Below, one piece after another: positions 2,500 through 31,310 of a DNA stretch of 32,000 bases (positions within the stretch are counted from its first letter, which is position 1; the number at the start of each line of letters is the position of its first letter). The DNA lies in assembly GCA_041657425.1 (NCBI GenBank), contig JBBABY010000001.1, positions 60,001 to 92,000 on the forward strand. The letters run 5' to 3'. The stretch is from an archaeon. Lineage in GTDB: Archaea; Iainarchaeota; Iainarchaeia; Iainarchaeales; CSSED10-239. The notes below the pieces were generated by a model. That model did not search any database and was not told the origin of the DNA. It worked only from the letters and a program-made list of their open reading frames with translations. The position numbers were made by a program, and so were the translations under genes.

Positions 2500-3084
2500 C
2501 TAGTTTGCTTTTCTTAATTCTGCTGTTTTTAAAGAAAATAATGTGTGGTGAAACTTTGGGTCTTTCTTAATAAAGCAAGTTAGAAGAATATTCACTATAT
2601 CTCCGTGAGCTGCAAGAACTATCTTTTTGCCTTTGTATTTCTTTTCTAAATCTAAAATTAGTTTTGTAGCTCTGTCAGCTACTGAATAAACTGATTCAAT
2701 TTCTCCAAGTGGTTTATCCTTTATATCTAATTCCCAAACTTTATCATAATTTTTATCAGAAGTTCTATCATATTTACCAAAATATCTTTCTCTTAAAGCC
2801 TTTGTTAAAATTATAGGTTTTGCTTTAATATGCACTCTAACGATTTCTGCAGTTTCTCTTGCTCTTTTAAAGTCTGAAGAATAAATAATTGTGTTTTTAT
2901 CTAAATCTTTATTTGCTTTTATTGAATCTTTTGCTTGTTGCTTTCCAAGTTCTGATAATCCGTAATTTTTAACAGCATATTTTGGACTACTCATAATTAA
3001 TTTCTTTATGTTTGCTCTACTTTGGCCGTGTCGTATTACATAATAGGTATTATTTAATTTTTTTATATCTTTTATTTTGTTCAT
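2500..3084 (-). CDS. histidine phosphatase family protein (phosphoglycerate-mutase-like), tandem copy 2
   Basis: 194 aa with RHGQS and AHGD motifs. It shares long identical peptides with copy 1: NKDLDK.TIIYSSDFKRA.ETAEIV, IKAKPIIL and DLEKKYKGKKI. Confidence 0.8.
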   Translation of the reverse strand: MNKIKDIKKLNNTYYVIRHGQSRANIKKLIMSSPKYAVKNYGLSELGKQQAKDSIKANKDLDKNTIIYSSDFKRARETAEIVRVHIKAKPIILTKALRERYFGKYDRTSDKNYDKVWELDIKDKPLGEIESVYSVADRATKLILDLEKKYKGKKIVLAAHGDIVNILLTCFIKKDPKFHHTLFSLKTAELRKAN

Positions 3085-14396: not shown

Positions 14397-14972
14397 ATGA
14401 ACAAAGAAATAAACAAAGGAGCGGAAGCTAAAATCTTAGAGAGCTTTGCCTTTGGTAAAAAACTAATTATTAAGCAGAGAGTTTCAAAGGATTACAGAGA
14501 TCCTGTACTTGATAAAAGAATCATCAAGACAAGAAACAAGCAAGAAGCAACACTCTTGAAGAAAGCAAAGGTTAATGGAATTAATACTCCGGACGTTTTC
14601 TATGTGGGACTTGATAAAATCATTATGGAAAAACTAGAAAACACAAACAACCACAAGAAACAACTAGAAGCAATTGGAAAAGAAATTGCAAAACTCCACG
14701 AACTTGGAATCATCCATGGAGACTTAAATCTTATTAATATCATAACAACTAAAGACAAAAAGATATACTTCATTGACTTTGGCCTTGGTTATCTTTCAAA
14801 CAAGATAGAAGACAAGGCAACTGATCTTCTAGTCTTTAAAAAAACCCTGTTTGCAAGAAAAACAACAGAGGGATTTTGGAAAGGAATAGAAGCAGGATAC
14901 CAAAAGCAATCCAAAGATAAAGCAATAATTGAACAAATCAAAGAAATAGAGAAAAGAGCAAGATACCTTTAA
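14397..14972 (+). CDS. bud32: Bud32/PRPK-type Kae1-associated kinase (KEOPS subunit, RIO-like fold)
   Basis: GAEA glycine-loop equivalent near the N-terminus, catalytic HGDLNLINI and IDFGLG motifs, and small size. The ORF track starts at TTG 14385; I prefer ATG 14397 (MNKEINKGAEA), which avoids overlap with the upstream stop. Confidence 0.85.
   Translation: MNKEINKGAEAKILESFAFGKKLIIKQRVSKDYRDPVLDKRIIKTRNKQEATLLKKAKVNGINTPDVFYVGLDKIIMEKLENTNNHKKQLEAIGKEIAKLHELGIIHGDLNLINIITTKDKKIYFIDFGLGYLSNKIEDKATDLLVFKKTLFARKTTEGFWKGIEAGYQKQSKDKAIIEQIKEIEKRARYL
14939..14964 (+). repeat. 26-nt exact direct repeat, copy 1 (inside the bud32 3' coding end)
   Basis: caaagaaatagagaaaagagcaagat is identical to 15848-15873. 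Here it encodes ..KEIEKRAR.. of Bud32. Confidence 0.9.
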
Positions 14973-15009
14973 ATAATTAAATTAATAAAAAATCTAGATG
15001 TGAAAAAAT

Positions 15010-15858
15010 ATGGTCGTAAAAAAATCAATCCCCGTTGTTAAACCAAAAATAAATCGTACAATTAATCCTCTCTTCCAAAAGAAAGCACAAGGCACAGAAA
15101 CTCAAAAAACAAATATACAAATAAAAGAAGAATTAAAACTTCTTGAAAAGAAACAAATAGAATTTATTTTTAAAGAATCATTGAAAACCAAAAATCCAGT
15201 AAGAGAATTATTAACTAAAGGACTTGATATTAGACAATTAAAAATAAGAGGCATAGATCTAATTAAAGAATTAGTCAAAGCTGGACACACAAAATCTTTA
15301 GCAGAAACTGGATATTTCAAAGAATTATTGAATGGACAATATATTAAAGAATTAGCAGAAGCGGGATATATCAAAGAATTAGTAAAACTGAGATATGTTG
15401 GCCCTTTAGTTGCTGCAGGATATTTAAACAAATTAGTTGAGATGGGATATATTAAAGAATTAGTAAATTTAGGATATCTAAAAGACGTTGCATACAAAGG
15501 ATATATCAAAGAATTAGCAAATGCGGGATATATTAGAGAACTAGTAGAAGCAGGACATTTTTCAAAATTAGTTGCTAATGGATATATCAAGGAACTAGCA
15601 GATAACGGAAACATAAAAGAATTAGTAAATGCTAGATTTTACAGAAAATTAATAGAAATGGGATACACAAAAGAACTAGTACAGGCAGGATATTTTAAAA
15701 AACTTGCAAAAGACAAATATTTCAAACAATTAGTAGATGCAGGATATATCAAAGAATTAGTAGAAGCAGGATATGTTAAAGAACTACTTAAACTTGGACT
15801 TTCTCAAGCTCAAATAACCCTTTCTATGAGAAGAAAAAGTCCATCGACAAAGAAATAG
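15010..15858 (+). CDS. nonapeptide-repeat protein with FQKKAxGTETQKT N-terminal module
   Basis: 282 aa. Residues 91-261 are 19 in-register 9-residue units of consensus aGYIKELVe. The N-terminal ~90 aa is paralogous to the 19440-20168 ORF. Confidence 0.7.
   Translation: MVVKKSIPVVKPKINRTINPLFQKKAQGTETQKTNIQIKEELKLLEKKQIEFIFKESLKTKNPVRELLTKGLDIRQLKIRGIDLIKELVKAGHTKSLAETGYFKELLNGQYIKELAEAGYIKELVKLRYVGPLVAAGYLNKLVEMGYIKELVNLGYLKDVAYKGYIKELANAGYIRELVEAGHFSKLVANGYIKELADNGNIKELVNARFYRKLIEMGYTKELVQAGYFKKLAKDKYFKQLVDAGYIKELVEAGYVKELLKLGLSQAQITLSMRRKSPSTKK
15280..15792 (+). repeat. 27-nt periodic coding repeat (19 units)
   Basis: Units such as gcgggatatatcaaagaattagtaaaa, atgggatatattaaagaattagtaaat and gcaggatatatcaaagaattagtagaa recur in frame. 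This periodicity also creates the long antisense shadow ORF at 15102-15614. Confidence 0.85.
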
Positions 15859-15873
15859 AGAAAAGAGCAAGAT
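15848..15873 (+). repeat. 26-nt exact direct repeat, copy 2 (spans the stop codon of the repeat-protein gene)
   Basis: Identical to 14939-14964 but read in a different frame (..TKK-stop). Confidence 0.9.
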
Positions 15874-16014
15874 TGCAAAATAATAATATATATAAACAAA
15901 TCGCCCCAATTATATATATATTATAGACCTAGTTTTATGGCTATATTTCTTATTAAACGCGCCTAATCAATCGCCACAGGCAAAATTAATGGAAAAACAA
16001 ATTACGTGATATAA

Positions 16015-16416
16015 ATGAGCGAAAATGAAAAAAAAGAATTAACTAAAAAAGAGATTTATGATGTAATAGAAGATCTTACAAAGAAAGGTAAGACTACTGC
16101 AGAAATAGGATTACATTTAAAACAAAAATTTGGTGTAAAAAACGTTTTAGAAACAACAGGTAAGAAAATCGGGAAAGTACAAGCAGAACTTGGACTTAAG
16201 AAGGATAAACTACCTGACGAATTACTATACTTAATTAAGAAAAGTGTTAAATTAATTAAACATAAAGAAGAAAACAAAAAAGACATGACTGCTAAAAGAG
16301 GATATCAAAAAACAGTCTCTAAAATTAAAAGATTAAGAAAGCACTACATTAATAAAAAGAAAATAGACAGCAATTGGAGATACTCTGATGATTCAGCTAA
16401 GTTGCTTGTAAAGTAA
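16015..16416 (+). CDS. rps15: 30S ribosomal protein S15 (uS15, archaeal S15P/S13e type)
   Basis: 133 aa. N-terminal S13e-type extension, then LPDELLYLIKKSVKLIKH...NKKDMTAKRGYQKTVSKIKRLRKHY...NWRY...AKLLV. Confidence 0.9.
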   Translation: MSENEKKELTKKEIYDVIEDLTKKGKTTAEIGLHLKQKFGVKNVLETTGKKIGKVQAELGLKKDKLPDELLYLIKKSVKLIKHKEENKKDMTAKRGYQKTVSKIKRLRKHYINKKKIDSNWRYSDDSAKLLVK

Positions 16417-17028: not shown

Positions 17029-17682
17029 ATGAAATTTATTTTCTATTTTATTTTTTTTTATGTTCTTGGAATCATCTTAGCAGTTACTAGAAAATACGAC
17101 ATATTTACAATTTCTTTAATATTTGGAATGTCTGGTCTTTTCTTATATTTTGGAAAAATTATTTTATTTATTTATCTTCTTATTTACTTTTGCGTTGCTG
17201 AAGGACTATCTTTAATCTTAAAGAATAAAGGAGAAAATAGAAGTTACATTAATCTTCTGGGAAACTGCCTTGTTGGGACTGTTCTTGTAGTTTTTGGGCA
17301 AGTCTATGCGGCGGCATCCACCATCTGCGGAGCATTCTCAGACACTATGTCTTCAGAGATTGGAAGATTATCTAAAGTTAAACCAAAGTTAATTACCACT
17401 TTTAAAGAAGTAGAAAAAGGAACTAATGGAGGAATAACAATCTTAGGCCTTTTTGGAGCACTATGTGTTTCAGTAATCACATTTGTTTTCTTTTATTATA
17501 TTTTTAAAACTGATCTTAAGATATCTATAATCATCTCACTCTTTGGAATAATTGGAACTCTTGTAGATAGTGTTATTGGAGCAACACTTGAAAATAAAGG
17601 ATACACGGACAATAGTCAAACTAATTTTTTAACAACAACAATAATTGGAATAATCTCAGTAATTGTTTTTTCTTTAATTTAA
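17029..17682 (+). CDS. DUF92/TMEM19-family integral membrane protein (CTP-transferase/polyprenol-kinase-like clan)
   Basis: 217 aa, multi-pass. The motifs GAFSDTMSSEIG, GTNGGITILG and GTLVDSVIGATLE match the conserved DUF92 blocks as I remember them. Confidence 0.6.
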   Translation: MKFIFYFIFFYVLGIILAVTRKYDIFTISLIFGMSGLFLYFGKIILFIYLLIYFCVAEGLSLILKNKGENRSYINLLGNCLVGTVLVVFGQVYAAASTICGAFSDTMSSEIGRLSKVKPKLITTFKEVEKGTNGGITILGLFGALCVSVITFVFFYYIFKTDLKISIIISLFGIIGTLVDSVIGATLENKGYTDNSQTNFLTTTIIGIISVIVFSLI

Positions 17683-18941
17683 AGCTTCCATTTCCAAACA
17701 GGAACTATTTGAATTACTAAATCCTTTTCTTTAATTGTGTCTTCTTGATTTAAAGTTAATATCGTTCCTTTATTTAGTTTAAATTTAGACATTGCTAACT
17801 TTAGCCCATTTATCTCTCTAACTTTATTATCTGCACTTAAATCTAAACAAACTTGAAAGGCATATGTTATCTTCTCTTTTTCTTTTATAATAAAATCACA
17901 TTCTAAATTCTGATCTTTATAGTAATATATACTTTCAAAATGGTTTCTTAAATTTATGAAAACTAAATTTTCAAGCATTCTCCCTTCATCTTTTGAAAAA
18001 GATAAAGAATTTGCTTTTGCAAAACCATTATCTATTGCATATATCTTCTTCTGACTTATCAATTGCTTCTTTATAGAATAATCAAATCTATTTATACTAA
18101 ATAACAAGTAACTATCTTCGAAATAAGAAATATACGAAATTATAGTATTAATAGAACCTACTTCAAATAATTTCTTTAAATTGTTGTAAGAATATTCTTT
18201 TCCTATGTTTGAAAGTAAATATACTGCTAAATCCTTTATAGTCTTTGACTCCTTTAAATGATGTCTAACAATTATATCTCTATAAATTATATTGTTTAAT
18301 AATTCTTGTAATATTTCTTCATTTTTATATTTTAAAAATTCAGGAAAACCACCCGCAACTAAATATTCTTTAAAGGAAACCTCACCTGACTTTTGACTTG
18401 TAAATTTCAAAAACTCATTATACGAAAATGGAAACATTTCTTTTCTTAAATGTCTTCCAGTTAATCTTGTACCTAATTCTTTACTTAATAAAGATGCATT
18501 TGAACCAGTAATTATTACCTTCTTTTTATTATCTAATAATTGCCTTACAAATATCTCCCATTTTTTTACATTTTGTATTTCATCAAAAAAGAAAATATCT
18601 ATGTTGCCATATACTTCTATTAATGCCTCTTGTAATTTTGTAAAGTCAGCCACTGAAAAAGCATTTAATCTCGTATCCTCAAAATTAAAATAAGCCCAAG
18701 ATTTCTGATTGCTTCTTATTTGTTGCAAGAACACACTTTTACCACATCTTCTTATTCCAGATATCACGTAAGCAAAAGAATCGGTAAGTTCCACTTCTTT
18801 TAACTCACTACGAGGTATTCCTAAATCTATATTTTTTAGCGCGTTCTTTTGATCTAAGACAATATCTATTATTTCTTTCTTTAACATCATATATATCTTT
18901 GGATAAACTAGTATATAAAGGTTTTCATTACTAATGAACAA
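17679..18941 (-). CDS. AAA+ ATPase of the COG1373 type (AAA_14 + DUF4143 architecture)
   Basis: Walker A is GIRRCGKS and Walker B is IFFFDEIQ, with a C-terminal DUF4143-like region. The likely real start is MMLKKEI at 18890, about 25 nt downstream of a TATA-like element (ctttatatac on the minus strand, 18911-18920). That would make the transcript leaderless. Confidence 0.7.
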   Translation of the reverse strand: MFISNENLYILVYPKIYMMLKKEIIDIVLDQKNALKNIDLGIPRSELKEVELTDSFAYVISGIRRCGKSVFLQQIRSNQKSWAYFNFEDTRLNAFSVADFTKLQEALIEVYGNIDIFFFDEIQNVKKWEIFVRQLLDNKKKVIITGSNASLLSKELGTRLTGRHLRKEMFPFSYNEFLKFTSQKSGEVSFKEYLVAGGFPEFLKYKNEEILQELLNNIIYRDIIVRHHLKESKTIKDLAVYLLSNIGKEYSYNNLKKLFEVGSINTIISYISYFEDSYLLFSINRFDYSIKKQLISQKKIYAIDNGFAKANSLSFSKDEGRMLENLVFINLRNHFESIYYYKDQNLECDFIIKEKEKITYAFQVCLDLSADNKVREINGLKLAMSKFKLNKGTILTLNQEDTIKEKDLVIQIVPVWKWKL

Positions 18942-19432: not shown

Positions 19433-19448
19433 GAAAAATTTATTTCTT
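19424..19448. terminator. 9-bp inverted repeat joining two convergent stop codons (possible bidirectional terminator hairpin)
   Basis: aagaaataa (19424-19432, includes the stop of the 19013 ORF), a 7-nt loop, then ttatttctt (19440-19448, includes the stop of the minus-strand 242-aa ORF). T-rich runs follow on both strands. Confidence 0.3.
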
Positions 19449-20168
19449 CTTGATTTCAGACATTAGTCTATTAATCTGAATTTTAGATAACCCTATTTGT
19501 TGAAATCCTTTTAAACCATATTTTTCATAAAACGTCTGTGGGCCCCCACATTTATTAATAGTATAATCCATACCAAAATTCTCAGACACCTCTATCATTC
19601 CAACATCTCTAATTAAATTATGTATTCCATCAAAAGAAGCAATCACTTCTTCTCTTGTAATTTTCTTATGGCTTGCATAATATTCATGTCCTAATACAGC
19701 AGCTAGTGGGCAACCGTCTTCTGAAATAAAATCTTTCACTTCTTTTCTGTCCTTTAAAATCCATTCTCCGTGATAATAGGGTTCTACATCATCTTTTTCG
19801 ATACCAAGTCTACGGTCATTAAAATTATCAATACCAAATATCCTTTCTAATTCTTTTGTATCTAGCCCTTTTGACAATAATTCCTTTTTAGTTAACCCTT
19901 GCTCTTGTAATTCCCTTACAACTTGTTTAATTCTTTCTTTAAGTATTGGTATGGCTTTAGGATCATCTAATCTTGCTGATAATCTATCTATACCATATTT
20001 TATTTTCAAATGTATAATTGTTCTCATCACATCGGCTTTATCTAAAGATTGAATATTTTTTTTCATTTCTCTTTTAGTCTTTTGAGTTTCTGTGCCTTTG
20101 GCTTTCTTTTGAAAAATAGAGTTTCTTAATCTACCTTTTGGAGTAGTTATCATTGGCACAAAAATCAC
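19440..20168 (-). CDS. hypothetical protein, paralog of the repeat protein's N-terminal module with an unrelated Cys/His-containing C-terminal domain
   Basis: 242 aa. VPMITTPKGRLRNSIFQKKAKGTETQKT aligns with IPVVKPKINRTINPLFQKKAQGTETQKT of the 15010 ORF, which supports the GTG start at 20168 (alternative ATG at 20153). I do not recognise the C-terminal half. Confidence 0.6.
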   Translation of the reverse strand: MIFVPMITTPKGRLRNSIFQKKAKGTETQKTKREMKKNIQSLDKADVMRTIIHLKIKYGIDRLSARLDDPKAIPILKERIKQVVRELQEQGLTKKELLSKGLDTKELERIFGIDNFNDRRLGIEKDDVEPYYHGEWILKDRKEVKDFISEDGCPLAAVLGHEYYASHKKITREEVIASFDGIHNLIRDVGMIEVSENFGMDYTINKCGGPQTFYEKYGLKGFQQIGLSKIQINRLMSEIKKK

Positions 20169-20180
20169 TCTTCTTAAAAT

Positions 20181-20258
20181 TTATTTCTTCTTATCTTTCT
20201 TCTGCTTTACTTTATGCTGCTTTCCTGAGGCACTTACCCCTCTTCCTTGTGCTGACAT
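20181..20258 (-). CDS. micro-ORF 2, 25-aa lysine-rich peptide MSAQGRGVSASGKQHKVKQKKDKKK
   Basis: Hand-translated and too short for the ORF track. ATG at 20258 is preceded by AAGGAGG about 8 nt upstream. It shares SGKQH.(K/V)KQ.K..KK with micro-ORF 1. Confidence 0.5.
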   Translation of the reverse strand: MSAQGRGVSASGKQHKVKQKKDKKK

Positions 20259-20273
20259 ATTACTTTCCTCCTT

Positions 20274-20366
20274 TTATTTTTTCTTACTTTGCTTCTTTTG
20301 ATGTTGCTTTCCTGAAACGTTTAGAGTCTTATCTCCTCTACTTTGTAAATTAGATTGCTTTGCCAT
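20274..20366 (-). CDS. micro-ORF 1, 30-aa lysine-rich peptide MAKQSNLQSRGDKTLNVSGKQHQKKQSKKK
   Basis: Hand-translated. ATG at 20366 is preceded by AAGGAG about 9 nt upstream, with TATA-like elements (tatttataaa, tatttatag) further upstream in 20390-20440. It is a paralog of micro-ORF 2. Confidence 0.5.
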   Translation of the reverse strand: MAKQSNLQSRGDKTLNVSGKQHQKKQSKKK

Positions 20367-29500: not shown

Positions 29501-30167
29501 AGGAAGAATGGACGCGCCTATTGCTTTTACTACTGTTCTCTCGCCATTTGAGATAGATGATGAATCACATGATATTGAAACAAACACTGAATATCCATTT
29601 GAATTTTACCAAGCAAGTAAAACCTTTACTGAAGCAGATAAGGTTCCTGAAATTATTAATGCAGGAAAATTACTTGGAACAGACAAGCAATACGATTGTA
29701 TAAAATTTACACACGACACCAATTGTTTTGATGAAGGCCCTAAGCAAAGTTCTTATATTTCCATCAAGTCAATGCATGACAAAGTACAGAAACAAGCAAA
29801 ACTTCAAGAAAGAATCCTTGCAGTAGATAACAAAGATTCTTTAGAAAGACTTCTTCATTATCATTTATTCCCAGACATCATTGGTAACACCAGAGCGTTT
29901 GCAAGACAGAAACTAAGATGCGTTAAATGTAATAAAAAGTTTAGAAGAATTCCACTTTCTGGTGTTTGTGATTGCGGAGGAAAATTAATCTTGACAATCG
30001 CACAAGGATCCATAAAGAAATATTTGGAAGTTGCAAAAAACTTAGTAATTGATTATCAACTAAACCCACATCTTTTACAAAGACTAAACATAAGTGAAGA
30101 CGAAATCAACAGCCTCTTCTCAGACAAAGAAGCAAGAATGCAGAAGTCGTTGTCTGAATATTTTTAA
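26553..30167 (+). CDS. polC: DNA polymerase II (PolD) large subunit DP2
   Basis: 1204 aa. Conserved DP2 blocks (GPIRAAGGNAQT, GARMGRPE, APHTSAG, NVDGDQD), an internal Cys4 cluster (CLTC..CFDC..CLKC..CSKC) and C-terminal CVKC...CDCGG zinc sites. The size is intein-free. Confidence 0.95.
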   Translation: MSELNLLANKEIKEYYNKLTSDIDVAVEIARTARKQGKDSHNDIESIPAKGIAEKTELLIGPPGVAKVYNELWEKHHTRFPVMLEIFNMILDKELGNIEDPEKRLDQALRTALIIETEGVVVSPLDGLPLIKLTKNEDGTEFIDIYYAGPIRAAGGNAQTLPLLLGDLARKKLGIDRFKPSKREIERVIEEAMLYQSEVVARQQRVTEAEVRVMVENCPIRVNSYADNEVEIVANRDIPGIDTNKVRGAMCLVLIDGLYVRALKIMKTSKKIGLDWSWLEKLVKVKKTAEGFELKPSSKYLEGLAAGRPVFSYPFREGGFRLRYGKARNTGLMAKAINPATMYVLDEFIAVGTHGRIERPGKSLQYFPCSTIDGPIVRLKNKDVISLDYVKDAKKYVNDIDKILFVGDMLIAVGDFRKSGHPLIKSGYVEEEWLAETNYLYRTEKINKHVLEMCKGFYQNPNPYTAIALSLKYNIPLFPKYIFYYDLLNHEELKILIRHVRAADKLFSNEDESTSRESSVADSEDKKEKTTILENIKEIFEKTIDTIDLIGLTEILTKKETQIIGIKIEYDTEIKAILEKIGLVHKYLEEENKILIEKEQAYPFLKTVGAMNAIDPIEEFKDEIENQEKTTVEILSHISKIEIRDKSGFWIGARMGRPEAAHERVVAGKVNVLFPIGKGYGNSRDFIKAIKKRADGANHNDFGINDVEIKSFMCLTCKKIIFNNYCFDCKTEAKEIRICLKCNSQTSDKICSKCNLETKVKIDHKINIDRLIEHAANNLRVGMPESLNGVKALVSRDKVSEPLEKGILRAKHNVSIFRDGTCRYEALNATISQVSAKELGITLEKLKELGYKKDYLDNDLKDENQRASIFPQDIIVDDNCGEYFLRVSQFIDDELEKFYELPKFYNSKTKEDLIGQLVIGLAPHTSAGIVGRIIGYSKSKLAWGHPYYITAKRRNVDGDQDSMLLLMDSMLNFSNSYLSSGRGGRMDAPIAFTTVLSPFEIDDESHDIETNTEYPFEFYQASKTFTEADKVPEIINAGKLLGTDKQYDCIKFTHDTNCFDEGPKQSSYISIKSMHDKVQKQAKLQERILAVDNKDSLERLLHYHLFPDIIGNTRAFARQKLRCVKCNKKFRRIPLSGVCDCGGKLILTIAQGSIKKYLEVAKNLVIDYQLNPHLLQRLNISEDEINSLFSDKEARMQKSLSEYF

Positions 30168-30170
30168 AAA
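30122..30170 (+). repeat. 49-nt direct repeat, copy 1 (functional 3' end of the DP2 gene including its stop)
   Basis: agacaaagaagcaagaatgcagaagtcgttgtctgaatatttttaaaaa matches 31120-31168 with 4 mismatches. Confidence 0.9.
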
Positions 30171-30173
30171 AGG

Positions 30174-31034
30174 TTATTTATATTTTGGTTTTCTTTTTTT
30201 CTTACTTTTTAATATTAATCTTTTTTGCTTTTCAGGAATTGTTAAATAATTATCTTTATTTGAAATCTTTCTTCCAAGCCCTTTCTCCACTTCTTTTCTT
30301 GCATTGCCTACAATTGCACCGCCTTTCTTTGCAACCACTTTGGATTTTAAATAACCTTGTGCATCTTCTTTAACTGTAATTTCCTTAGTTACTTTTTCCC
30401 CTAACATTGAGAAAATCAATTCAAACTCGTCCATATGGTCTCTTAAATTTTCATTATTTAAACCTTTGAATTTCTTATATTCGTTAGGCGTCATATCAAA
30501 AGTAGCTTTTGAAATTTCAGCTGTAAGAATTGAAAACTCTTTTTTTTCCTTTACTCCTCTTTTCTTCCATTCGTCAGTTAGTTCATCCCTAACAGCTATC
30601 CCTCTAATTCTCTTTTCAATCCATTCATCGGAGTAACCTTTAGCTATAAAAAGAGCCTTCATTCTTTTTTGAGCAAGCTCTGGATTTTGTATCTCTTGTA
30701 TTCTTTCATAACCCACTTGAGAAAGCCACAGTTTGAAAGGTTCTGCTTTTGGGGAGGGAATTGATTGAATTAATCTAAATGCGCCTTTAATAGATATACA
30801 ATTTAAATTTTGTTTACCACCAACTGTATCTATCAAAAGGGGGGTGGCAATTTGCCCCCACCCTTTATTAAAAGATTCGTCTCTTCTTCTCATATCTTTT
30901 AAATATCCTGATGGATCTTTAGAATCAGTTAATACCTCAACTATATCGGTCGCAACAACCCACCATTCTTCATTAAACCAAGTTCTTCTAATTTTCTTGT
31001 TTTCAAAAATAACTATTGAATTATTTGTTTCCAT
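30174..31034 (-). CDS. Bro-N domain protein (phage/virus-associated antirepressor-like family)
   Basis: 286 aa. The N-terminal Bro-N pattern is IFENKKIRRTW..EEWWVVATDIVEVL. The highly characteristic downstream blocks are IQSIPSPKAEPFKLWLSQVGYERI, RDELTDEWKKRG and ENLRDHM. Confidence 0.8.
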   Translation of the reverse strand: METNNSIVIFENKKIRRTWFNEEWWVVATDIVEVLTDSKDPSGYLKDMRRRDESFNKGWGQIATPLLIDTVGGKQNLNCISIKGAFRLIQSIPSPKAEPFKLWLSQVGYERIQEIQNPELAQKRMKALFIAKGYSDEWIEKRIRGIAVRDELTDEWKKRGVKEKKEFSILTAEISKATFDMTPNEYKKFKGLNNENLRDHMDEFELIFSMLGEKVTKEITVKEDAQGYLKSKVVAKKGGAIVGNARKEVEKGLGRKISNKDNYLTIPEKQKRLILKSKKKRKPKYK

Positions 31035-31119
31035 AAACTTTTCACCAATTATATATACTTTATAATTGGCAATATAAAAAGCTTTCTAGGGTGGCTGTCC
31101 AGTGCGAAATAGTATTTTT

Positions 31120-31168
31120 AGACAAAGAAGCAAGAATGCAGAAATCGTTATCTGAATTTTTCTAAAAA
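31120..31168 (+). repeat. 49-nt direct repeat, copy 2 (orphan copy of the DP2 3' end)
   Basis: agacaaagaagcaagaatgcagaaatcgttatctgaatttttctaaaaa would encode DKEARMQKSLSEFF-stop, against DKEARMQKSLSEYF-stop in the real gene. Confidence 0.9.
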
Positions 31169-31184
31169 TTAGTTATATTTCAGA

Positions 31185-31310
31185 TTATTTTTTAGCATAC
31201 TTGAATGGCGCAGCTTTAAGAGACGAGATTGATTGAATAATTCAAAATGTGCCTTTTATATTTGCACAATCTGTTTCATAATATTTGCCATCATAAGATA
31301 TTAGTTTCAG
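31185..31310 (-). pseudogene. decayed fragment of a second Bro-N gene
   Basis: The reverse-strand translation LISYDGKYYETDCANIKGTF*IIQSISSLKAAPFKYAKK* aligns with LIDTVGGKQNLNCISIKGAFRLIQSIPSPKAEPFKLW of the intact gene (about half identical). It has an in-frame stop at 31242-31244, and both the N- and C-terminal parts are missing. Confidence 0.7.

Follow-up and report, generated by a model that had tools for sequence, protein, structure and literature searches.

The stretch of DNA analysed here, referred to as the window, comprises 32,000 nt of the Iainarchaeota contig JBBABY010000001.1 (positions 60,001 to 92,000), and our interest lies in the interval between two of its essential genes, bud32 and rps15. 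Comparison with related genomes indicates that a single segment of about 0.9 kb, holding one gene, has been inserted between these two genes in one lineage. The insertion has left a genuine scar, since a perfect 26-nt duplicate of the bud32 coding end stands at its far side. The best reading of the 26-mer pair is that it records a single insertion, made in the ancestor of the lineage; any mechanism beyond that is a matter of inference. We tentatively favour, with a probability of roughly 0.45, a single illegitimate event of microhomology or template-switch repair or replication that copied the bud32 end and involved no dedicated recombinase. The locus is made up of the following features, listed from left to right.

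14397 to 14972, plus strand: bud32 (ATG at 14397, stop at 14970-14972), encoding the 191-aa KEOPS kinase/ATPase, with Pfam RIO1/Kdo matches.
14939 to 14964, plus strand: copy 1 of the 26-mer, the working coding end of bud32 (KEIEKRAR).
14965 to 14974, plus strand: ACCTTTAAAT, made up of Tyr-Leu-stop and 2 further nt; it follows copy 1 alone, its 10-nt equivalent being absent after copy 2.
14975 to 14995, plus strand: AT-rich zone that contains the left junction (AATTAAATTAATAAAAAATCT), with a weak, non-significant likeness to the ancestral spacer.
14996 to 15009, plus strand: translation-initiation block AGATGTGAAAAAAT, directly before the ATG and typical of the gene family.
15010 to 15858, plus strand: inserted gene, an open reading frame (ORF) of 282 aa with a basic N-terminus, a RELLTKGLDIRQLKIRG motif, about 19 nonapeptide repeats and a C-terminal GLSQAQI...KK-stop.
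15262 to 15783, plus strand: diverged 27-nt tandem array encoding the nonapeptides (19.3 copies, 60% matches).
15848 to 15873, plus strand: copy 2 of the 26-mer, which forms the insertion's right junction and is a duplicate bud32 end without bud32 function.
15874 to 16014, plus strand: ancestral bud32-rps15 spacer (the upstream block of rps15), collinear with the spacers of all close relatives and untouched by the insertion.
16015 to 16416, plus strand: rps15, the ancestral downstream neighbour of bud32 (Pfam Ribosomal_S15; synteny in relatives).

The 26-mer, CAAAGAAATAGAGAAAAGAGCAAGAT, occurs exactly twice in the window, both times on the plus strand, and a search of the window allowing up to three mismatches gave no further copy. 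A sequence-only reading of this DNA had described the duplication and judged it, by rough reasoning, to be beyond chance. Both copies are indeed exact and lie in the frames it described, and the judgement can now be given numbers: the 26-mer is the longest exact direct repeat of the window, it found no match in any of 100 dinucleotide shuffles, and 200 simulations of the window under a third-order Markov model gave a longest repeat of 16.4 nt on average and of 22 nt at most, which rules out a chance repeat. An assembly artefact is ruled out by contigs from three independent assemblies (ERZ27247350, SRR18595299 and SRR6484787), in which the same two copies stand at the same spacing; over 12.5 kb, the ERZ27247350 contig has 3 mismatches to the window.

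In the ...I-KEIEKRAR-YL-stop tail of Bud32, copy 1 starts with the third base of the Ile codon and ends with the first base of the Tyr codon. Copy 2 is read in a different frame, where it supplies the (T)KK and the TAG stop (15856-15858) of the 282-aa ORF; ending the new ORF (T-K-K-TAG) is now all that it does, and Tyr-Leu-stop is gone. The left edge of the repeat is sharp (GAACAAAT/C against CCATCGA/C, the slash marking the edge). To the right of the 26-mer, the similarity is weak and at background level, the local alignment scoring 61, of which 52 come from the 26-mer itself. The unit itself is purine-rich and not self-complementary. A longer duplication of about 57 nt was considered and is not claimed: the L005 sequence aligns by blastn over about 57 nt to both sites, but outside the 26-mer and the coding ACCTTTAA the resemblance does not exceed what a composition of 85% A+T would give. 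The period from copy 1 to copy 2 is 909 nt, and the 883 nt bracketed by the copies hold exactly one plausible gene, in agreement with the segment of about 0.9 kb and one gene that had been proposed to lie between bud32 and rps15.

The direction of change is set by the relatives. Among the names borne by the Bud32 homologues are Candidatus Iainarchaeum, ainarchaeum and Diapherotrites. Some 20 distinct relatives, with Bud32 identities from 76% down to 41%, have rps15 as the immediate downstream neighbour of bud32, with a spacer of about 110-270 nt in between, and the gene order p167-bud32-rps15-rps3ae is conserved in them. None of these relatives has the 282-aa gene and none has a second bud32 end, so that the synteny check proposed by the sequence-only reading comes out in favour of an insertion. 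The two outcomes it had named as telling against it, a pair of copies shared by all relatives and a duplication that vanishes on re-assembly, were not what was found: the relatives lack the two copies and the duplication persists in the three assemblies. The single bud32 end and the direct bud32-rps15 order in the relatives imply that the segment of about 0.9 kb is a lineage-specific insertion. The bud32 genes of two lineages of relatives, L005/L009 and L007/L025, contain the 22-mer GAAATAGAGAAAAGAGCAAGAT once and without any change. Aligned at the junction, copy 2 and the sequence downstream of it (15848-16014) correspond to the ancestral bud32 end and spacer, minus 10 nt. In the relatives, the 10 nt that separate the equivalent of the 26-mer from the conserved block of the spacer read A(C/T)CT(T/A)TA(G/A)A(T/A) and encode Tyr-Leu-stop plus 2 nt. 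The reverse history, with an ancestral 282-aa gene lost in the relatives, is rejected on grounds of parsimony and because of the product that such a loss would leave. Recombination between the two copies would yield a Bud32 lacking its invariant R-Y-L end, which is seen in no relative; the state of the relatives is thus ancestral and the insertion derived. Population variants without the insert had also been suggested as a thing to look for. Look-ups with the exact Bud32, rps15 and 282-aa proteins gave the occupied arrangement only and no empty-site contig.

Both neighbours of the insert have kept their working parts. The conserved Bud32 tail, ...IEKRARYL-stop, is intact in this genome, and its homologues all end in IExR(A/G)RYL; the identical 191-aa protein carries the name Bud32 at NCBI/JGI. 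On the right, the spacer at 15874-16014 is about 93% identical to that of L011, against only 85% for the rps15 coding sequence. Across the equivalents in L005-L029, this spacer is more conserved than the flanking genes and contains a near-invariant AAAATAATAATATATATAAAYAAATCGCC block and a second motif, AATCGCCACA. It has no Rfam match and no conserved fold, and it probably serves as a promoter or leader. On the left, the AT-rich zone at 14975-14995 could supply the new gene with a putative TATA-like box, some 25-30 nt upstream of its ATG. A different insertion of 2.2 kb was observed in the same spacer of L032 (4589-6720), comprising four tandem paralogous ORFs on the minus strand for Cys-rich single-pass membrane proteins, and it has no flanking duplication. 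The bud32-rps15 spacer tolerates insertions, yet is no recurrent attachment (att) site.

The protein encoded by the insert consists largely of about 19 diverged units of a helical nonapeptide, GY(I/F)KELVxA. An AlphaFold2 model (pLDDT, the predicted local distance difference test score, 74) places 6-residue helices every 9 residues, and a Foldseek search of this model against the PDB gave nothing below E = 1. Word-indexed searches with the 282-aa protein returned no homologue, and its exact sequence is absent from the cluster collection searched. An exhaustive phmmer search did find a family, made up of P0127 (49%), P0134 (37%), P0184, P0183, P0221 and P0138, whose members share with the 282-aa protein an N-terminal module, the repeats and a C-terminus of the SQxEI..KK type. 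The family proteins all end in KK, KN or SK followed by the stop. P0221 matches Pfam PF25296, 'Decapeptide repeat region' (76 bits; cut-off 45), and P0184 scores 36 bits; the 282-aa protein itself has no PF25296 match at E 0.01 or better, and its relation to that family is indirect. The GC content, GC3 and synonymous codon usage of the inserted gene are typical of the window, and the closest nucleotide match outside the genome, in L042, has 70% identity over 370 nt. Blocks resembling AGATGTGAAAAAAT precede family genes elsewhere (GGATGTGATTAAAAATG in L048 and AGATGATAAAAAATG in L047), and the initiation block came in together with the gene. Taken as a whole, the inserted gene is a member of a fast-evolving family native to the clade and not recognisable foreign cargo. 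The earlier notion of a cassette capture thus stands as far as a lineage-specific insertion of a single gene is concerned, but the gene is not obviously foreign, given that the family is found 4.5 kb away in relatives and that the codons are host-like. The phmmer search also matched the repeats alone in giant proteins of 1,900-5,200 aa (P0125, P0126, P0129, P0132 and others, with E down to 1e-36); these matches, in a metagenomic library, indicate that the nonapeptide repeat type is widespread beyond the small family. Another family gene, P0183, is bracketed by a 20-nt direct repeat (19/20, CTTGTCATCAGACTAGTTTT) at 5-24 and 756-775 of L047, an unrelated short contig whose ends lie close by.

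A second member of the family resides in the same window.

19440 to 20168, minus strand: resident paralog of 242 aa (237-239 aa as annotated), 32% identical to the 282-aa protein over the N-terminal ~110 residues by BLASTP (E 2e-8).

This paralog shares the C-terminal motif of the 282-aa protein, but not its repeat array. In L043-L046 the family member P0134 stands in the order SecF-SecD-DUF5684-P0134-EpsH-like-DUF92-S3Ae-S15-Bud32, and the 242-aa ORF occupies exactly the slot of P0134, 4.5 kb from the bud32 site. We had considered the 242-aa gene as a further insertion relative to L005 and rejected this, as it stands in the ancestral slot of the family. A 62-nt block at 15068-15129 matches 20058-20119 in inverted orientation at 81% nucleotide identity and encodes FQKKAxGTETQKT, a motif found only in the two window paralogs and in no other family member. 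This shared block suggests gene conversion between the two paralogs or a recent common origin.

Several further observations concern the surroundings of the paralog. A 17-nt exact direct repeat on the minus strand (AAGAAGAAATAAATTTT; 19435-19451 and 20176-20192) lies at the 3' ends of a tiny upstream ORF and of the 242-aa gene. It has an architecture like that at bud32 and is the second-longest match among 561 gene-end pairs; being rich in Lys codons and T-runs, it may have arisen by chance. Two tandem, mutually similar tiny ORFs of 30 aa (MAKQSNLQSRGDKTLNVSGKQHQKKQSKKK) and 25 aa (MSAQGRGVSASGKQHKVKQKKDKKK) lie on the minus strand at about 20177-20365, between the DUF5684 and 242-aa genes, where L043 has only a 31-nt spacer. 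The AAA_14/DUF4143 ATPase gene at 17679-18941 (minus strand) was also considered as an insertion and rejected; L005 retains the last ~105 nt of this gene and an upstream palindromic GTTCATTAC motif, which identifies its absence there as a deletion in L005 (L005 7349-7500).

The event that we favour can be set out in steps, all of them reconstructed. It would have begun with a break at or just past the bud32 stop codon, in an ancestral sequence of the form ...26-mer-ACCTTTAGAT/TGCAAAATAAT..., as in L006. The break would have been filled by an ectopic copy of a family gene, donated either by a related genome or by the locus of the paralog, 4.5 kb away. What now sits at the very end of bud32, immediately ahead of the conserved promoter/leader block of rps15, is a fragment of about 0.87 kb with a complete GY nonapeptide/decapeptide-repeat gene and its own ribosome-binding block. 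The 3' junction would then have been closed by synthesis-dependent microhomology joining or by template switching, re-copying the 26 nt that precede the break by 10 nt. Lys-Lys-stop is the ending of the family genes, so the native gene end (AAGAAATAG-like; ACA AAG AAA TAG-like) could pair with CAAAGAAATAG of bud32 over a microhomology of up to ~11 nt, and the true junction could lie anywhere in 15848-15858. Another candidate microhomology is AGAT, which recurs at the candidate junctions. In a compact genome with spacers of about 150 nt, only those events that restored the essential Bud32 tail and spared the rps15 promoter block would persist, and this survivorship filter would explain why the scar contains the gene end. 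The insertion has since become fixed, and the gene is retained as an intact ORF.

What is seen at the right junction agrees with a templated duplication, in that copy 2 repeats without a change the 26 nt found 10 nt upstream of where the ancestral spacer takes up again. A run of 26 perfect nt that ends abruptly, with 10 nt absent, is unlike a decayed target-site duplication. The repair model accounts for the perfect identity that stops abruptly, for the 10 missing nt without a second mutation, and for the lack of a mobility gene. Synthesis-dependent microhomology-mediated end joining (SD-MMEJ) is reported to yield templated copies of nearby flanking sequence (PMC2943611). The sequence-only reading had offered a long target-site duplication, an att-type footprint and a microhomology-mediated capture side by side. 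The evidence leans to the last of these, leaves the att-type footprint as a rather unlikely option, and does not agree with a clean target-site duplication, the 10 nt after copy 2 being missing.

The sequence-only reading had also drawn a parallel to the polD-large/Bro-N locus near the right end of the window, and this parallel proved to be real.

30117 to 30207, plus strand: copy 1, the 3' end of polD-large (including its last 17 codons) and the first ~37 nt past the stop.
30174 to 31034, minus strand: inserted Bro-N gene, 286 aa (Pfam Bro-N; phrog_15286 over residues 2-262, E 5e-79).
31115 to 31202, plus strand: copy 2, spacer together with what is left, in diverged form, of the 3' end of polD (DKEARMQKSLSEFF followed by the stop).

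The two polD copies bracket the Bro-N gene, agree over 54 nt at 89% (30117-30170 against 31115-31168) with a 24-nt exact core, and can be extended to about 86 nt at ~85% with one 3-nt indel. Their period is 998 nt, compared with 909 nt at bud32. On its opposite strand, copy 1 encodes the last ~11 codons of the Bro-N ORF, which thus ends in duplicated host-derived sequence just as the 282-aa ORF does. The polD duplication is similar to the one at bud32 but older. Neither its core nor the Bro-N protein had a match in IMG/VR, and look-ups with the exact polD and Bro-N proteins gave the occupied arrangement only. This genome carries two scars of this sort within 42 kb, compared with none in about 225 kb of DNA from its relatives, and the 10 kb beyond the right end of the window contain no further one.

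Several points weigh against a one-off repair event. Two scars in 42 kb are more than expected from rare accidents, and the polD/Bro-N scar, only 15 kb from the first, looks like the work of a recurring process. Every step of the mechanism is reconstructed, the position of the left junction narrows no further than 14975-14995, and no donor of high nucleotide identity was found, the match in L042 being the best and the 62-nt block the only one within the genome.

The polD locus, with its shared architecture and a Bro-N gene of a viral family, is also the main argument for site-specific integration, the leading rival, which we regard as rather unlikely. According to this explanation, a small circular element, either non-autonomous or left over from the decay of a larger integrated one, carried the bud32 3' end as its attP and was integrated into the 3'-distal part of bud32 by a tyrosine or serine recombinase acting in trans; the 26-mer would be the core shared by attL and attR, and an arm borne by the element would have rebuilt Tyr-Leu-stop. 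Direct repeats that flank an insert and overlap the 3' end of a protein gene are a classic signature of such integration, the single-copy empty site in about 20 relatives is as it should be, and the identity stops sharply after 26 nt as it would at a recombination core. In Thaumarchaeota, 14 of 68 integrated elements lie in 3'-distal portions of protein genes, the att lengths are 8-26 bp and above (29-69 bp in Crenarchaeota), and one element replaced the last 8 nt of its target, stop codon included, by its own sequence (PMC6563490). The differences between the polD copies, 4 of 6 of them synonymous in the coding part, hint weakly that both copies diverged while coding (p ~0.05-0.1 by our own estimate). 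On the other side, a domain scan that covered the window ORFs of at least 90 aa taken as genes, together with the gene calls of the 10 kb beyond the right end (about 42 kb in all), found no integrase, transposase, Cas1 or reverse transcriptase domain, and the window gave no tRNA. A single gene makes up the insert, its family is native to the host and its codon use host-like, and the host-side arm next to copy 2, which integration should leave unaltered, lacks 10 nt. No relative examined carries the bud32 26-mer twice or a copy of the unit at another site, the 26-mer has no exact match in IMG/VR, no excised or empty variant appeared among the protein look-ups, and the insertion in the L032 spacer is free of repeats. 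Nothing at the locus indicates an active mobile element.

A broader alternative, which we consider doubtful, would place both scars under one undescribed process of Iainarchaeota-like DPANN archaea, driven by a recombinase in trans or by a peculiar repair pathway. Such a process would add one-gene units of about 0.9 kb at the extreme 3' ends of essential genes (bud32 and polD-large), with the gene end rebuilt by a duplication of 26-90 nt and the ORF ending in the duplicate. The contrast between this genome and its relatives in the number of scars is compatible with a dedicated single-gene insertion process of this kind. In another arrangement, known from organelles and phages and exemplified by the atp6 and cox genes of fungal mitochondria, a mobile ORF of the homing-endonuclease type brings along a replacement gene end, giving the order host gene end, ORF and displaced duplicate of the gene end. 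Here the unit would be the new C-terminal codons of bud32 plus the ORF, inserted just upstream of the 26-mer, with copy 1 borne by the element and copy 2 the displaced original in decay. The layout matches, copy 2 lacks the stop region as a displaced relic would, and a homeologous donor would look identical over the 22-nt core, which is the same across species. Even so, we think this improbable: neither Pfam nor PHROGs gave a domain for nuclease activity or DNA cleavage in the 282-aa protein, no structure matched it, all 26 nt are identical, the lineage-variable CAAA included, and no other genome examined carries the unit. A target-site duplication by a transposase or casposase, requiring a staggered cut of 26-36 nt or more and then a 10-nt slippage deletion in copy 2, is more improbable still. 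It would explain a target-derived direct repeat on both sides of the insert, and in the L006-like ancestral sequence AGAT...AGAT stands on either side of the 10 nt that are missing, an arrangement that would favour slippage. Against it, an inverted-repeat search of 14900-15950 found no terminal inverted repeats at the ends of the insert, the scan gave no transposase or Cas1, and the only ORF of the insert, the repeat protein, is an ordinary gene of a cellular family. Known prokaryotic transposons and casposons produce duplications of ~2-15 bp, and 26-36 nt would be far longer. The least credible reading, largely refuted, takes the repeat as a functional element (an RNA structure, terminator or regulatory site) at both places, or the gene as ancestral. 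Copy 2 is perfectly conserved although mostly non-coding, and a 10-nt complement of the 26-mer (CTATATTTCT) is located in the rps15 leader. However, the relatives have a single copy, RNAalifold over 10 lineages gave no pairing that involves the 26-mer (consensus energy -1.75 kcal/mol, no covariation), the locus has no Rfam match and no terminator, and in L012 a further 85 nt separate bud32 from the leader. For an ancestral gene, the Bud32 tail would not survive a loss through recombination of one copy with the other, and some 20 independent precise losses would be unparsimonious.

The window as a whole is core chromosome of an A+T-rich (~30% GC) DPANN archaeon. Besides Bud32 and S15, its genes encode Orc1/Cdc6, ThiI, MnmA, SepF, Dus, NAC, a class-I aminoacyl-tRNA synthetase, S3Ae, SecDF, Nog1 and the small and large subunits of PolD. 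Two tandem paralogous histidine-phosphatase genes (His_Phos_1) lie on the minus strand at 1866-2450 and 2500-3084 and are about 70% identical over 300 nt.

DPANN genomes are very small and tightly packed, and little is known about how they gain genes. The bud32 locus shows, at single-nucleotide resolution and against an empty site in about 20 relatives, a gene added between two essential genes with neither damaged, the Bud32 tail having been rebuilt by duplicating a short stretch, with no change to the promoter block of rps15. If the polD/Bro-N and bud32 scars share one process, they offer a tractable entry into gene gain in these archaea; if they are two independent accidents, they make a neat but ordinary example of insertion scars. 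The analysis also defines a small, previously unannotated protein family, with a basic N-terminus and 9- or 10-residue helical GY repeats, that shifts its position and domain content between close relatives.

Direct comparison with described systems places the individual parts of the locus. The family resemblance of the 282-aa protein is to P0221 and P0184, the two that match PF25296, with which it shares short helical repeats of the form G-(Y/F)-x-x-x-(E/D)-L and an SQxEI C-terminus, but its period is 9 residues and not 10. Integron cassettes are likewise promoter-poor single-gene units of about 0.9 kb with a repeat at the 3' end of the ORF; unlike them, the bud32 insert has no attC-type imperfect palindrome in its 26-mer and no intI or attI, no integrase was found in the scanned ~42 kb, and its repeat is derived from the target and differs at the second locus. 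The homing-type ORFs with replacement gene ends have the same layout, whereas the bud32 case lacks an endonuclease domain, has not spread, and has copies that are identical and not homeologous.

The closest comparisons are with joining by SD-MMEJ or template switching, the latter including fork stalling and template switching (FoSTeS) and microhomology-mediated break-induced replication (MMBIR), and with the integrated elements of Thaumarchaeota. The former share with the bud32 locus a point insertion, an exact copy of nearby sequence at the junction, an abrupt end of identity and possible microhomology, and need no dedicated element. They are described mainly in eukaryotes and bacteria, usually with shorter templated tracts, and the microhomologies proposed here are inferred. 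We know of no documented case in archaea of an ectopic gene capture of 870 nt joined to a 26-nt templated tract. The 3'-distal elements of Thaumarchaeota (PMC6563490) resemble the locus in their flanking direct repeats, one of them over a gene end, in the preservation or rebuilding of frame and stop, in the single-copy empty site of relatives, and in repeat length, 26 nt falling within the reported att range. They are, however, kilobases long and carry integrase or mobility genes, whereas the bud32 insert is one 0.85-kb gene of a host family with no recombinase in ~42 kb, no second occurrence of the unit, and a host-side arm that is short of 10 nt. In its general form, a direct-repeat scar at a lineage-specific insertion beside a conserved gene, the phenomenon is of a known kind.

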